From Escherichia coli (GTDB lineage Bacteria; Pseudomonadota; Gammaproteobacteria; Enterobacterales; Enterobacteriaceae): a stretch of 64,000 nt of DNA. The DNA is taken from the NCBI RefSeq assembly GCF_050320075.1, contig NZ_CP190018.1. The stretch is one strand, 5' to 3'. This document shows, piece by piece, positions 16,603 to 20,895 of the stretch. Every line of letters starts with the position of its first letter. Positions within the stretch are counted from its first letter, which is position 1. The notes beneath the pieces are model-generated. The model made no database searches and was not told the DNA's origin. It saw only the letters and a program-made list of their open reading frames with translations. The translations under genes and the position numbers were made by a program.

Positions 16603-16689
16603 GCCCGGATGGTGGAATCGGTAGACACAAGGGATTTAAAATCCCTCGGCGTTCGCGCTGTGCGGGTTCAAGTCCCGCTCCGGGTACCA
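16603..16689 (+). tRNA. leuZ: tRNA-Leu (UAA)
   Basis: GCCCGGATGGTGGAATCGGTAGACACAAGGGATTTAAAATCCC...CCGGGTACCA, long variable arm, anticodon TAA. Confidence 0.95.
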
Positions 16690-16763
16690 TGGGAAAGATA
16701 AGAATAAAATCAAAGCAATAAGCAGTGTCGTGAAACCACCTTCGGGTGGTTTTTTTGTGCCTG
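16634..16763. repeat. direct repeat copy 1 (att-like): 3' 56 nt of leuZ plus ~74 bp downstream including terminator
   Basis: Near-identical to 20765..20895; begins in the leuZ anticodon loop. Confidence 0.85.
16733..16757 (+). terminator. rho-independent terminator of the glyW-cysT-leuZ operon
   Basis: AAACCACCTTCGGGTGGTTT hairpin followed by TTTTTTT. Confidence 0.7.
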
Positions 16764-16941
16764 AAATTCACGCCCTGTGCATATCCTGTGCTCACGGGGG
16801 GCAATGAGCTGCAATCTCAAGCCCGGCAATGCCGAATCGAACGTGTCGCCTCCAGCATAGAGAACCAGGCCGCTTTGCCTGTTTTCCGGTACTCTTCCGG
16901 GAAGGGGGGCCAGCTGAGCAAGCTATAATGCTCTGGCCACC

Positions 16942-17673
16942 CTAAGCACAAAGTTGCTTAATTCGTGCAATCACCTCATCTCTGTATTTCTGGTGTCCGC
17001 GCATAGCCCTTGGATGGGCTATCCTGAAACAGATTGTATGACCTGTTTTGAACTCCCATAGCTTCCCCGGAATGACTGAAGAAGTCTCATAGCCGCCTAG
17101 CTCAGTAAGCACCTGTTTTATGATGTAGTCTGTTCTCCGGGCTCCGGATGCAAAGATGGTGAAATCAGGCTCAAGGTGTTTAATTTGTACCGCCAGCAGT
17201 TTCAGCGAGGCTAATATGACTTCCTGCACTTCATTTTGAGGGCGATTGAGAGGGGGCAGTCCGTCGTAATCCCACGCCAGTAGATTGGCATACACGATAG
17301 CCTGAGGAGGAATATTAAGCTCCCGGGCCAGCCGGAAGTGATACTGCGTGAAGCGGCTACGTGATTTGTGGTTCGTGGTGCCATCATTTTGTGCCGGAAG
17401 ATGTTTCCTGTAACGATCTACAGCCTCTTCAACCACCTGCCCGATGGTGACGTCAGGTATAAGTCCCAGAACCCGTGATATCGTATTCTTACCATTCAGC
17501 GTATTCCAGCCAGCGGTTTCACGCCCAACCAGCATGATTTTTACCGGTGAGTGCCAGTATTCTTCAAAGGGCACGGGTAAAAAGACGCCTGAGTATTTAT
17601 CCTCATTCAGGTTAAATGACTGGGCGTCAACTTCCTGTAATATCCGTTTGTATGCGTCTAATAGTCTTTCCAT
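16942..17673 (-). CDS. hypothetical protein, 243 aa, with uracil-DNA-glycosylase-superfamily-like motif pattern (tentative)
   Basis: Long intact ORF; N-terminal KIMLVGRETAGW resembles UDG motif A (family 4 IMFVGEAPG), C-terminal IAHPRAMRG resembles motif B (HPxxxxR); no database search possible. Confidence 0.55.
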   Translation of the reverse strand: MERLLDAYKRILQEVDAQSFNLNEDKYSGVFLPVPFEEYWHSPVKIMLVGRETAGWNTLNGKNTISRVLGLIPDVTIGQVVEEAVDRYRKHLPAQNDGTTNHKSRSRFTQYHFRLARELNIPPQAIVYANLLAWDYDGLPPLNRPQNEVQEVILASLKLLAVQIKHLEPDFTIFASGARRTDYIIKQVLTELGGYETSSVIPGKLWEFKTGHTICFRIAHPRAMRGHQKYRDEVIARIKQLCA

Positions 17674-17753
17674 TCTTCAATCCTGCCCCGTAATAAAAAT
17701 ACCTTCAGATATATATTATTTTCATGATATCAATCAGATACATGAGGATAAAT

Positions 17754-18440
17754 ATGCAAAAATCCTTCCGATTCACCAATTCATCCATCAAAGCCCTTCC
17801 GGCAAACACAGATACCCGATCTACAGAGCTTGAGGTATCTGATACCGAAGTCATTGGCCTCAAATGCCTCTCAGGTCGAACGGGCAACAAACGTTTCCTC
17901 CTGCGCTACACATTCCACGGTACCAAAAAAAGTATCAGTATTGGCAGATTCCCTGAAATCGATGTGGGAACAGCCCGTCAGATAGCTCGTCGTCACAAGG
18001 AGGCGATTGCACTGGGAAATGACCCTAAGGCAGAGCGCGATAATTATCGGGCGATGCCAACGCTTAGTGAGTTTTTTCACCAGACCTATGTTCCGTTCAT
18101 CAAGCGCCATAAAAAGTCCTGGGATAAGGATGTTCAGCGTTTCACGCAATACATTGAACCTCGTCTGGGGAAGATACGTTACTGCGACCTTCAGGCCCGG
18201 GAAATCCAGCAGGTGCTTTTTGACATGCTTGAGGGCCGTATTCACGGCCAGCAGTATGCACCGTCTACCTGTAACAGGGCACTGGCTATTCTGAAAACCA
18301 TGGGCCGTTATGCGCTACGACAGGATGTCCTGGAGAAGAATGAAGCCGATAAGATCCCTTTGCTGAAGGAGAATAATCACCGGACGCGCTTTTTTGACGC
18401 TGATGAGATCAGGAGAATCCTTGATGCTGCGTCTCGATAA
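17754..18440 (+). pseudogene. P4-type tyrosine integrase, N-terminal fragment only (catalytic domain missing)
   Basis: MQKSFRFTNSSIKALP... arm-binding/DUF4102-like N terminus and core-binding region; ORF stops at ~228 aa versus ~400 aa expected, so the R..HxxR..Y catalytic domain is absent. Confidence 0.75.
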
Positions 18441-18655
18441 CCCAATAAAGCTGCCGGAGGGCTGACGCCGGAAGAGTCAGAGAACAGATACCATTTTTAC
18501 TGTAAAACCGTGGCCAGTATTACTTGACCACTACATTCTAAGGCTTGCTTTAATGCTAAGGCTAAATGATTTTGATATAGTAAGTTCATACTTAGCGGGC
18601 AGATGCCCACAGACATAGTACCGAAAATAAATCAGGTATTCTGCGAGATTTCAGT

Positions 18656-19984
18656 ATGAAAATAGCCAATATTAGACTTACGAATTTTAGATGTTTTGAC
18701 GAGTTTAGTGTTGATTTTGACCCAAGACTTACAGTTCTCATTGCTCGTAATGGTAGAGGGAAATCTACTCTGCTTGACGCGGTAGCATTAGCTTTAGGAC
18801 CATTTTTAACTCGTTTGCCAGGGATCAAAGGGCTAAGTTTCAAGAAAACCGATTTCCGGATCGACGAAAATGGAGACCAGCCGTCCTATATGCGAGTAAG
18901 TTGTACTAGTACAACGGGTATAACTTGGGATAGAACTGAGCGAAGAGATCTGACAAAAAAAACGTTAGGTAGCATCCCCCAAGGGGCAGCCCTTAAAGCC
19001 TTGAATGATTACGTCGATACGTTCATTGATTCTCACAATGAGAATAAACACTATACATTGCCAATTTTTGTTTATTACGGAACTGGGCGTGGAGTGTTTG
19101 ATATACCACTCAGAAAACGTGCATTTAACAAGCATTTTTCTCGATTTGAGGCCCTTGACGGTGCTCTTGAAAGCAAAACAAATTTCAAAAGATTTGTGCA
19201 ATATTTTTATTTTCTTGAAGAAAAAGAAAATAGATTACAGAAAGAGCAACGATCATTTGAAGTAGAAATCCCTGAATTAAGGGCAATACGCTTGGCTGTG
19301 GAAAAATTACTGCCAGAGTTTAGCAATATTCGCTCGGCAGTACCTGCTGGAATTATGGTCGATTGGTGTAAGCCTATTGGAAATGGTGAAACAACCATAC
19401 AAAAGCTAAGGATTGAACAACTTAGTGATGGCTATAGAACAACTTTAGCTATGGTTATGGATATTGCAGCAAGAATGGCAGAAGCTAACCCCTATTCGAG
19501 TGATCCTCTAAGTTCTGAGGGGATAATTCTCATTGATGAGGTAGATCTGCATCTGCATCCGGAATGGCAACGTGAGTTTCTCCCTAGATTAATCAACGTT
19601 TTCCCTCATCTTCAGTTCATAGTATCGACGCATTCACCATTTATCATCCAGTCTGTCAAAGAGGGGATGTTGGTCGATCTTGATAAAGATGACATTTCGG
19701 ATAGCCCCTCTTTGAATAAAGAACTCAGCATCGAAGATATTGCTGAGGGTGTAATGGGAATGGAAAAAGTTCAACGAAGTGAATTGTTTAACAAACAAGT
19801 CGCAGTTTCAGATAGATATTATCAGTTACTGAATGAAGGAAGAAGTGAAAGCGACCCAGAGGTAAGGAAGCTCTCCGCTGAGCTTGATAAATTGGAAGAG
19901 TTTTTTGGAGATAACCCAGCTTATGTAGCCTTACTTCGTGCTGAGCGCCGAAAAATAATGGGGACACAAGGAAGTAAACAATGA
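18656..19984 (+). CDS. ABC/AAA-type ATPase (RecF/SMC-like head, AAA_15/21-like), 442 aa; Septu PtuA-like candidate
   Basis: Walker A NGRGKST (K36), signature-like LSDGYR, Walker B IILIDEVD, H-loop STHSP; ~37% GC; stop overlaps the downstream start (ATGA). Confidence 0.85.
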   Translation: MKIANIRLTNFRCFDEFSVDFDPRLTVLIARNGRGKSTLLDAVALALGPFLTRLPGIKGLSFKKTDFRIDENGDQPSYMRVSCTSTTGITWDRTERRDLTKKTLGSIPQGAALKALNDYVDTFIDSHNENKHYTLPIFVYYGTGRGVFDIPLRKRAFNKHFSRFEALDGALESKTNFKRFVQYFYFLEEKENRLQKEQRSFEVEIPELRAIRLAVEKLLPEFSNIRSAVPAGIMVDWCKPIGNGETTIQKLRIEQLSDGYRTTLAMVMDIAARMAEANPYSSDPLSSEGIILIDEVDLHLHPEWQREFLPRLINVFPHLQFIVSTHSPFIIQSVKEGMLVDLDKDDISDSPSLNKELSIEDIAEGVMGMEKVQRSELFNKQVAVSDRYYQLLNEGRSESDPEVRKLSAELDKLEEFFGDNPAYVALLRAERRKIMGTQGSKQ

Positions 19985-20592
19985 GACCTGTAAATCGACC
20001 TCCATATAATGGAACTGTTTATGCAGATTATAAATCATTTTTACCTTCGCTATTAACTGCATATGGCGGATATTGTTCTTATTGTGAGCGGCCGGATAAG
20101 GTTGATGTGGAGCATGTTGTCCCAAAAACGCATGCACCACTTTTGATTACTGATTGGAACAATTTTTTACTGGGTTGCCCTCGCTGTAACCGAGATTTTA
20201 AAAAAAGTAAGAATACTCAACGTATAGGCTATGTTTGGCCAGATGTTGAGAATACATTTAATTTATTGACATACCATCCAGATGGTAGAGTAGAGCCTAA
20301 GCAGGGGCTGTCTGCCGGACTAACTGCGCAGGTACAGGCTACTATTGATTTGGTATGTCTTGATGATGGTAACCAAGTACAAAAAACTTTAAATCTTGGT
20401 AGAAGGAGATATTTTGGACTCGCGAATAAGGCCAAGACTCTTTATCTGAGTAATTTATTGAGTATTGATGAGGTCATGGATATGGCTCAGTTAGGATATT
20501 GGTCGATCTGGTATAATGTGTTTCAAGGTGTACCTGCTGTCCTTTCAGCTTTGGAGAATTCCTATCCTAATACCGCTATAAACCGCCCATGA
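19981..20592 (+). CDS. HNH endonuclease, 203 aa; Septu PtuB-like candidate
   Basis: Zinc-finger HNH pattern C32-x2-C35 ... H45 ... N60 ... C66-x2-C69; translationally coupled to the upstream ATPase. Confidence 0.85.
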   Translation: MRPVNRPPYNGTVYADYKSFLPSLLTAYGGYCSYCERPDKVDVEHVVPKTHAPLLITDWNNFLLGCPRCNRDFKKSKNTQRIGYVWPDVENTFNLLTYHPDGRVEPKQGLSAGLTAQVQATIDLVCLDDGNQVQKTLNLGRRRYFGLANKAKTLYLSNLLSIDEVMDMAQLGYWSIWYNVFQGVPAVLSALENSYPNTAINRP

Positions 20593-20764
20593 CATAGGTG
20601 AAATGAATTGGCTCAGGTGCGTACAAGGGGAAGACTTACCTGTGCAGCTTCTGTGTTCAACGTTATCCATGTCTATCTATTTACTGCCAATTACAGTAAA
20701 GTTGGTGGATAATTACAGCAAAGTGTTGCAATGGGTTGCTATGTAAATCATTGATCCTGCGTAG

Positions 20765-20895
20765 AATTTAAAATCCCTCGGCGTTCGCGCTGTGCGGGTT
20801 CAAGTACCCGCTCCGGGTACCATGGGAAAGATAAGAATAAAATCAAAGCAATAAGCAGTGTCGTGAAACCACCTTCGGGTGGTTTTTTTGTGCCT
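20765..20895. repeat. direct repeat copy 2 (att-like): partial leuZ 3' half + terminator copy with a 1-bp insertion
   Basis: Matches 16634..16763 except an extra A (CAAGTACCCGCTCC versus CAAGTCCCGCTCC). Confidence 0.85.

Follow-up and report, generated by a model that had tools for sequence, protein, structure and literature searches.

Pipolins are defined by a primer-independent B-family DNA polymerase, piPolB (PMC7385651, PMC11551731). In Escherichia coli, they lie at a tRNA-Leu gene between pgsA and yecA and are bounded by att-like repeats; at the tRNA end, they encode a uracil-DNA glycosylase (UDG) and a XerC-like recombinase, which has been named XerC_2 or IntSXT (PMC7385651, PMC11551731). 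They have been described as "bimodular," with defence cargo at the distal end, and both truncated recombinases that retain only the Arm domain and deletions that run from IntSXT to piPolB have already been described (PMC7385651, PMC11551731). Here, we examine a segment of about 4.1 kb at this site in a 64,000-nt stretch of E. coli contig NZ_CP190018.1 (assembly GCF_050320075.1). We will call the whole stretch the window, and positions without another label refer to it. The segment lies between leuZ, which encodes tRNA-Leu(TAA), and yecA, and it contains the start of an integrase gene, a gene for a 243-aa protein, and a Septu defence operon (ptuA-ptuB). We consider it very probable that this segment is the remnant of a pipolin-type integrative defence island that underwent a large internal deletion. 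The original prediction for this locus, which was made from the window alone, was that an element integrated at leuZ by site-specific recombination, lost its recombinase, and left its cargo behind. The empty site in other strains, the displaced repeat of leuZ, and the absence of the integrase's catalytic domain all agree with this.

Upstream of the segment are uvrC, pgsA, and the tRNA cluster glyW-cysT-leuZ. Using ARAGORN and Rfam, we identified tRNA-Gly(GCC) at 16387-16462, tRNA-Cys(GCA) at 16517-16590, and tRNA-Leu(TAA) at 16603-16689 on the plus strand (57.7 bits for the Rfam tRNA family). The last of these, leuZ, is the integration target. A 130-nt block (16634-16763, plus strand), whose first base is also the final one of the 5' anticodon stem of leuZ, spans the last 56 nt of the gene and 74 nt downstream. 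It recurs as a 131-nt block at 20766-20896 (plus strand), and the sole difference between the two copies is an extra A at 20806. This duplication of the 3' part of leuZ and the terminator, with a single inserted base, had been noticed from the window alone, with the right copy placed one base off (at 20765-20895). A 40-nt core of the repeat occurs exactly twice in the window and not at all in 100 shuffled sequences. The extra A is present in all six of the carrier loci that we compared (L008 and L012-L016). The block includes the terminator of the tRNA operon (16732-16756, plus strand, with a second copy at 20865-20889). A simple consensus scan for terminators did not list it, and RNA folding revealed it: a hairpin at 16732-16753 with a 9-bp stem and a TTCG loop (-16.1 kcal/mol), followed by a run of U up to 16756.

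In a K-12-type strain, the same site is empty and colinear with the outer flanks of the island. There, yecA directly follows leuZ after a spacer of 196 bp, as the original prediction stated. The proximal block, which is the core of attL, is identical to the native K-12-type site. The distal block, which is the core of attR, was not called as a tRNA by either ARAGORN or Rfam, and it runs unbroken into the sequence that is native downstream of leuZ in the K-12-type strain; yecA (21018-21683, plus strand) is the first core gene beyond the island. Thus, direct repeats from the 3' part of a tRNA bound the insert, an empty site exists, and a (truncated) integrase gene adjoins the tRNA end, as expected for an island at a tRNA. 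Among 5,426 complete E. coli genomes, which is the collection used for all of the counts below, leuZ-yecA is uninterrupted in 3,792 (70%). In principle, the segment could instead be ancestral backbone that was lost from K-12, or the distal repeat could be an independent tRNA pseudogene, and these were the two ways in which the original prediction expected that it might fail. Neither is the case. The empty site is found in 3,792 genomes and the island in 40, the boundary is used by unrelated elements in other genomes, and native sequence follows the distal copy with no interruption. The distal repeat was once the 3' part of leuZ and has been displaced, and we give these alternatives practically no weight.

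The integrase gene survives as its first 707 nt (17754-18460, plus strand), which encode the arm-binding domain and part of the core-binding domain. Its open reading frame (ORF) ends at 18440. E. coli strain GD33 has a full-length integrase of 399 aa at leuZ, and the 228 encoded residues share 98% identity with residues 1-228 of that protein. In Pfam, the 399-aa protein has an Arm-DNA-bind_3 domain (residues 7-96), a weak central domain, and a catalytic Phage_integrase domain (residues 213-377). Since the ORF ends at residue 228, the fragment lacks the catalytic domain, which is what had been predicted. The stop codon is a TAA (18438-18440, plus strand) that is TAT in the GD33 allele, the sole allele that we aligned across this codon, and it lies 20 nt before the deletion junction that we describe below; similarity at the DNA level extends beyond the stop to nt 707 of the gene (position 18460). 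The differences between the fragment and the GD33 allele are nearly all synonymous (the ratio of nonsynonymous to synonymous differences, pN/pS, is 0.04), which implies that the integrase was functional until shortly before it was truncated.

The original prediction called this integrase "P4-type." Its domain architecture, Arm-DNA-bind_3 followed by a catalytic domain, does fit that description, but close kinship does not: the 399-aa integrase is just 23% identical to P4 Int, over 357 residues, and none of the integrases in a phage collection are above 29% identity to it. It corresponds instead to the integrase next to the tRNA in E. coli pipolins. We use the label IntSXT, which we took from PMC11551731 and not from a classification of our own.

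To place the rest of the segment, we compared it to related islands. In GD33, the gene for the 243-aa protein (split there by an insertion sequence, or IS, of type IS1) and the full-length integrase gene head a large island at leuZ. The island continues with small ORFs, a DUF2787 protein, an 866-aa protein annotated as "DNA polymerase," a helix-turn-helix (HTH) protein, a second integrase, a type I restriction-modification (R-M) system, an M48 peptidase, and a DUF262 protein. GD33 (L010, 1-40001) has two pipolin-type islands in tandem at leuZ. The junction in the middle (near 27750-28060) has the structure of an attP, with the right arm, the att block, and the left arm in that order, and its att block has variants that are absent from the native site (a T>C change in the terminator loop and a 2-nt deletion).

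The informative relatives are the two members of the 90% PtuA cluster that come from other genera, Lelliottia and Pectobacterium. In Lelliottia nimipressuralis, an island of about 23.5 kb lies between leuZ and yecA. Its gene order is pgsA, glyW-cysT-leuZ, a 246-aa homolog of the 243-aa protein, a 405-aa integrase, ORFs of 83, 123, and 176 aa, DUF2787, a WYL protein, the 866-aa polymerase, a 199-aa ORF, an excisionase-like HTH_17 protein, a 373-aa integrase, a 375-aa ORF, hsdM-hsdS-hsdR, an M48 peptidase, ptuA-ptuB, the other copy of the att block, and yecA. Both ends of our island are colinear with this complete, polymerase-bearing island. From pgsA through the tRNAs, the gene for the 243-aa protein, and int, the window (15600-18465) aligns to Lelliottia continuously at 90.9% identity, and the alignment halts at the junction of int with an IS. 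It resumes at 18536, the base after the IS remnant, and proceeds at 93.5% identity past ptuAB and the right arm, ending within the att block (18536-20891). In Lelliottia, the second alignment starts 20 bp downstream of the stop codon of the M48 peptidase gene. Between the two alignments, about 19.4 kb of the Lelliottia island has no counterpart in the window. Relative to the undeleted form, the segment lacks piPolB, the second integrase, the excisionase, DUF2787, WYL, and the type I R-M system. Using tblastn with the polymerase from GD33, and searches for DUF2787, the second integrase, and the other missing parts of the pipolin core, we found no homolog anywhere in the 64-kb window.

The IS remnant between the two alignments is an 81-bp stub of the right end of ISEc31, which belongs to the IS3 family (18455-18535, plus strand). 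The stub is 100% identical to annotated ISEc31 ends (H88-H95), and the match extends to the 3' end of the transposase coding sequence. The similarity to int overlaps the start of the stub by six bases, CGGAGG (18455-18460, plus strand), which form a microhomology junction. One carrier (H81, L008) has an additional IS3-family element, but this is not the ancestral IS: it inserted later, into ptuB at its 3' end.

In Pectobacterium carotovorum (L029 and L030; 6172-12116), we found another, independently reduced remnant, with a Septu segment that is 99.4% identical to the window and an att-UDG segment that is 89% identical. Its order is the att block, the gene for the homolog of the 243-aa protein, the first ~46 nt of int fused to a fragment of hsdR, fragments of the M48 peptidase, and ptuAB. 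No tRNA was detected in the P. carotovorum locus. Its similarity to the right end of the window stops at GAATTTA, which are the first bases of the att block, and this fits strand exchange in the anticodon loop. Given the 99.4% identity of the Septu segment and the different deletion, the cargo has passed from one genus to another in recent times, and the interval from int to the cargo is prone to deletion. The first relatives of PtuA from Pectobacterium that we considered as a possible origin (84-85% identity) were rejected, as their contexts are unrelated: one lies in a CP4-57-like island, and another is a lone insertion between selO and lplA.

We considered whether the segment might be a generic P4-family (CP4-like) tRNA island that is unrelated to pipolins, with an eroded integrase and two independent cargo modules. 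The full-length homolog of the integrase does share the Arm-DNA-bind_3 plus Phage_integrase architecture with P4 Int. Also, the two modules differ by 10 points in G+C content (near 50% for 16.8-18.4 kb and near 40% for 18.45-20.7 kb), and the original prediction had read them as two unrelated cargo modules. The contrast in composition is real, but the GC-richer module is conserved backbone of pipolins. In enterobacterial pipolins, the gene for the 243-aa protein always separates the att site from the integrase gene, and the module recurs beside the integrase in all of the related islands that we examined; GD33, C325, and Lelliottia share this gene order next to the tRNA. Only the AT-rich Septu module is cargo. 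The colinearity of both ends with the Lelliottia island and the low similarity to P4 Int and to other phage integrases also argue against a generic P4 island, which we regard as very unlikely.

We find it just as improbable that the island was already decayed when ISEc31 brought in the Septu genes, for instance within a composite transposon. The stub does lie directly upstream of ptuA, and ptuAB moves elsewhere as a compact two-gene unit (in the Pectobacterium loci L018 and L019). However, in both Lelliottia and P. carotovorum, ptuAB, the 120 bp upstream, and the right arm are continuous with the M48 and type I R-M cargo, with no IS between them. The similarity of the window to these two islands begins exactly at the end of the stub, and no second copy of the IS or target duplication flanks ptuAB in the window.

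Our preferred explanation remains an internal deletion within a pipolin-type island, and we propose the following history. The island would have entered leuZ by a tyrosine-recombinase crossover in or beside the anticodon loop. The attP of the element would hold a copy, of ~130 bp, of the 3' half of leuZ and the terminator, so that integration would rebuild a functional leuZ and leave the displaced copy beside yecA. The ancestral island would have been similar to the ~23.5-kb island of L. nimipressuralis. In the E. coli lineage, ISEc31 would have inserted 20 bp downstream of the M48 gene, before ptuA. A later deletion, with up to 6 bp of microhomology, would then have joined nt 707 of int to a point that is 81 bp from the right end of the IS. 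This would have removed ~19 kb, with the catalytic half of int and all of the genes for replication, excision, and R-M. The change from TAT to TAA, which also cuts the residual ORF of int, would be a second and independent lesion. The original prediction described the recombinase as decayed. The loss is real, but in this history it came about by one deletion of ~19 kb and a separate nonsense mutation, not by gradual erosion. An IS-anchored deletion at a microhomology would thus have turned a self-replicating island of ~23.5 kb into a fixed islet of 4.1 kb.

Several observations weigh against this explanation. First, piPolB, the hallmark of pipolins, is absent, so by definition the segment is a derivative of a pipolin and not a pipolin itself; its descent from pipolins rests on the homology of the backbone and of the cargo. 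The other features expected of a pipolin are present: an integrase gene of the IntSXT type near tRNA-Leu, between pgsA and yecA, with att-like repeats. Second, the 866-aa protein of the reference islands matches DNA_pol_B_2 in Pfam weakly (E = 0.009), and we called it piPolB from its size, its synteny, and the literature. Third, an undeleted intermediate that bears the IS was not found among the 5,426 complete E. coli genomes, where all 40 that have ptuAB carry the reduced form of the island. Fourth, the attL block in the window is of the native type, while the attL and mid-junction blocks in GD33 are of the element type. A crossover at the 5' edge of the block would not predict a native-type attL, unless there was later conversion or recombination near leuZ.

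Downstream of the stub is the native upstream region of ptuA (18536-18655, plus strand), where the similarity to the islands of Lelliottia and Pectobacterium begins, 20 bp past the M48 peptidase gene of those islands. It is followed by ptuA (18656-19984, plus strand; 442 aa), which encodes an ABC-type ATPase, and ptuB (19981-20592, plus strand; 203 aa), which encodes an HNH nuclease and whose start overlaps ptuA by 4 bp. PtuA matches the PADLOC model PDLC00267 over residues 1-432 of 442 (E = 2.1e-190). Its best relative of solved structure is the PtuA of a stand-alone Septu system (PDB 8ee4; E = 5e-43, residues 1-353). Its translation has a Walker A motif with K36 and a Walker B motif, IDEVD. 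PtuB matches PDLC00315 in PADLOC (E = 6.1e-61) as well as TIGR02646 and PtuB models, and CxxC pairs and H45 can be read from its translation. Both proteins are full length, with the same lengths as in other genera, and both appear to be under purifying selection (in comparison to Lelliottia, pN/pS is 0.08 for ptuA and 0.22 for ptuB).

PtuA and PtuB are also found in type I-A retrons, but we rejected this assignment. There was no ORF for a reverse transcriptase in the list of ORFs for the window, the only Rfam families found in the window were tRNAs, so there is no retron RNA among the matches, and the NCBIfam model for the PtuA of retron Ec78 gave a score of 240, below its cut-off of 500. Given the full-length matches in PADLOC and the lack of a reverse transcriptase or a retron RNA, this is a stand-alone type I Septu. 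In the characterized relatives, Septu aborts phage infection by nuclease action, on DNA or on tRNA-Tyr, and the Walker motifs and the HNH motif are both needed (PMC13096335). As ptuAB is intact and under constraint, we infer by analogy that the present function of the island is phage defence by Septu. In single isolates, insertions have altered the C terminus of PtuB: an IS3-family element (L008, 5148-6361) and an IS1 (L016, 11935-12632) lie at the 3' end of ptuB, and the proteins are annotated as 194 aa and 224 aa, respectively.

The two arms of the island are conserved. The left arm (16764-16941) aligns continuously with the leuZ islands of GD33, C325, and Lelliottia. The right arm (20593-20765) is conserved with other leuZ islands of the family from about 20610 onwards (86-88% identity in the matches H82-H85). 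Within the right arm, AATTACAG occurs twice, 22 bp apart (20689-20718), and the NDM5 island has this pair too. From the sequence, these may be putative arm-type binding sites for the integrase.

The remaining gene of the segment (16942-17673, minus strand) is divergent from int and intact, and it belongs to the backbone of the island. It encodes the 243-aa protein, which is a member of phrog_29550 and corresponds to the "type-4 UDG" of the pipolin literature. The protein has no match in PADLOC, NCBIfam, or Pfam (for Pfam, even at E ≤ 10). The sole match in a profile search against sequences from PDB was RAD51, which we judged to be spurious. The family is broadly distributed in Gammaproteobacteria, and some sources describe its members as "UDG-like." We obtained an AlphaFold model with 39 homologs (predicted local distance difference test score, pLDDT, of 90; predicted template modelling score, pTM, of 0.90), and its best structural matches were family-4 UDGs (4zby and 1l9g). 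The protein is thus predicted to have the alpha/beta fold of UDGs, and it is by predicted structure only that we place it in the UDG superfamily. We then compared it to the features of family-4 enzymes, which are the GEAPG and HPS motifs and four Fe-S cysteines. The invariant G50-R-E-T-x-G55-W-N and H220-P-R resemble UDG motifs A and B, but only one cysteine is invariant.

Relatives of the 243-aa protein at 50-55% identity are found beside Mrr and a type I R-M system (Proteus), in a mobile region (Stutzerimonas), and beside a large helicase gene cluster as well as HIT and NOV_C genes (Marinobacter). In two of these three contexts, Stutzerimonas and Marinobacter, there is a conserved ORF of 109 aa just upstream of the UDG-fold homolog (L021 5672-6001, L022 2711-3040, L023 5657-5986, and L024 5657-5986). 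In Stutzerimonas, the stop codon of this ORF overlaps the beginning of the UDG-fold gene, and in Marinobacter the two are 14 nt apart. This partner is absent from the E. coli island.

Some glycosylases that act against phages have the same fold. Brig1 was placed there on similar grounds, its best match being 4ZBY (PMC11078745), and further defence glycosylases with the UDG fold have been described (bioRxiv 10.1101/2025.10.29.685425; 10.64898/2026.02.25.707755). By analogy, the 243-aa protein might be an anti-phage DNA glycosylase like Brig1, Brig2, or Brig3, so that the remnant would be a defence islet with two systems whose surviving ends were kept by selection. We offer this tentatively and think that it is rather doubtful. 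Nevertheless, this widespread UDG-fold protein, an orphan by sequence, is a candidate for glycosylase-type defence.

The 4.1-kb island itself is present in 40 of the 5,426 genomes (0.7%), always at leuZ and with the same junction. Over 3.8 kb, 39 of the 40 copies are 100% identical, and the remaining one is 99.7% identical. The carriers were obtained from dogs, cats, humans, poultry, wild birds, and water. Among the carriers that we compared, the right flank hardly differs over at least 7 kb, and one carrier diverges beyond 28 kb (window 28000-30000 versus L013 and L014). On the left (window 8000-16472 versus L008, L012, L013, and L016), there are haplotypes that are ~1% apart, and the last difference is at 16472, which is 162 bp before the repeat. 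Mosaic flanks around an identical island are consistent with a single origin and later homologous recombination in this region, in which either the island or the flanks could have moved.

Because the remnant lacks a catalytic integrase, an excisionase, and a polymerase, it presumably cannot excise, move, or replicate on its own. Judging from the sequence, a helper might conceivably excise it, since both att blocks and both arms are intact. This raises the possibility that the remnant is still mobilized in trans, by the IntSXT integrase and excisionase of a co-resident or incoming pipolin, which would be compatible with its origin by deletion from a pipolin-type island. Tandem pipolins and co-integrates of pipolins with prophages do occur at leuZ, and the mosaic left flank of the carriers, next to an identical island, could be seen in this way. 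But all 40 copies are at leuZ with the same junction, the attR of each of the six loci compared has the additional A, and the right flanks barely differ over at least 7 kb. Repeated site-specific integration would explain these observations less well than descent or homologous recombination. Also, we found no helper in the 64-kb window. Overall, we think that mobilization is unlikely.

More broadly, the leuZ site is a shared integration hotspot. We surveyed its contents in other strains, as the original prediction suggested, and found prophages, mosaics of defence genes, and pipolin-type islands. The prophages include a P2-like prophage in O157:H7 and another myovirus prophage. The anticodon-loop site of leuZ is occupied in about 30% of E. 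coli, by at least three types of elements (pipolins, P2-like prophages, and the other myovirus prophage). An earlier survey, as cited in PMC11551731, put the occupancy of the tRNA-Leu site at 21% of genomes. In the occupied genomes that we sampled (H38, H39, and H24-H28), the match on the yecA side begins at the repeat boundary or one base inside it. Two of the carriers (L014 and L015, from GCA_053000235.1 and GCA_038714615.1; coordinates 1-7900) have a P2-like prophage between leuZ and the island. This prophage encodes a 333-aa integrase and a GpA replication protein, and it abuts the att block of the island at the position that corresponds to 16635 in the window. The P2-like prophage at leuZ in O157:H7 (L007) uses the same boundary. 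From these sequences, unrelated integrases appear to share one crossover region at leuZ.

The integrase family of the island is found in 443 of the 5,426 genomes, with 357 near full length, and the gene for the 866-aa polymerase of the related islands is found in 296. By subtraction, at least 147 genomes are candidates that probably hold derivatives without the polymerase. Truncations of int at nt 474, 892, and 989 recur in differing lineages, and the truncation at nt 474 is found in O145 strains. Surveys of pipolins that require piPolB miss such remnants, and a screen of this kind would discard the 4.1-kb remnant that we describe here.

How does the remnant compare to known systems? The closest are the enterobacterial pipolins, such as that of E. 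coli 3-373-03_S1_C2, which have the same site, att-like repeats, a UDG and XerC_2/IntSXT at the tRNA end, and a bimodular organization with distal defence cargo (PMC7385651, PMC11551731). In contrast to these, the remnant lacks piPolB, the second integrase, the excisionase, DUF2787, and WYL, and it spans 4.1 kb instead of ~23.5 kb (in Lelliottia). Truncated pipolins have been described before ("pipolin 2" in Fig. 3 of PMC11551731; LREC247, LREC250, and LREC251 in PMC7385651). Like the remnant, these have an integrase that is reduced to its arm-binding part, and ISs were implicated. P2-like prophages are often co-integrated with them at the same tRNA, as in L014 and L015. However, the truncated pipolins keep piPolB, while the deletion in the remnant runs through piPolB to the last cargo operon, and the breakpoint in int is at nt 707 in the remnant and at nt 474 in the O145 strains. 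P4 and P4-like islands at leuX also have a tyrosine integrase with Arm-DNA-bind_3 next to a tRNA-Leu and repeats that derive from the 3' part of the tRNA. The core of P4 is annotated as 20 bp, whereas the block in the remnant has 130 bp, with its start in the anticodon loop and the operon terminator inside it.

The Septu operon has the same organization as other type I systems (8ee4, and Ec-B88 from PMC13096335), with overlapping genes for an ATPase and an HNH nuclease and no reverse transcriptase. The allele is divergent: the Walker A lysine is K36 instead of K43 as in Ec-B88, and the match to 8ee4 covers just residues 1-353. As for the 243-aa protein, it is a sequence orphan with a UDG fold whose best structural matches are family-4 enzymes, as was reported for Brig1, and it has homologs in defence neighborhoods. 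The likeness to Brig1, Brig2, and Brig3 is in fold and genomic context only, and in pipolins, the UDG gene is treated as a gene for DNA metabolism, unlike the antiviral Brig proteins. Overall, the remnant is a tidy and well-explained instance of a process that was already known. It does not represent a new type of element, and it leaves the current understanding of pipolins unchanged. What it adds is a base-by-base view of how a defence operon can outlive the mobile element that carried it.

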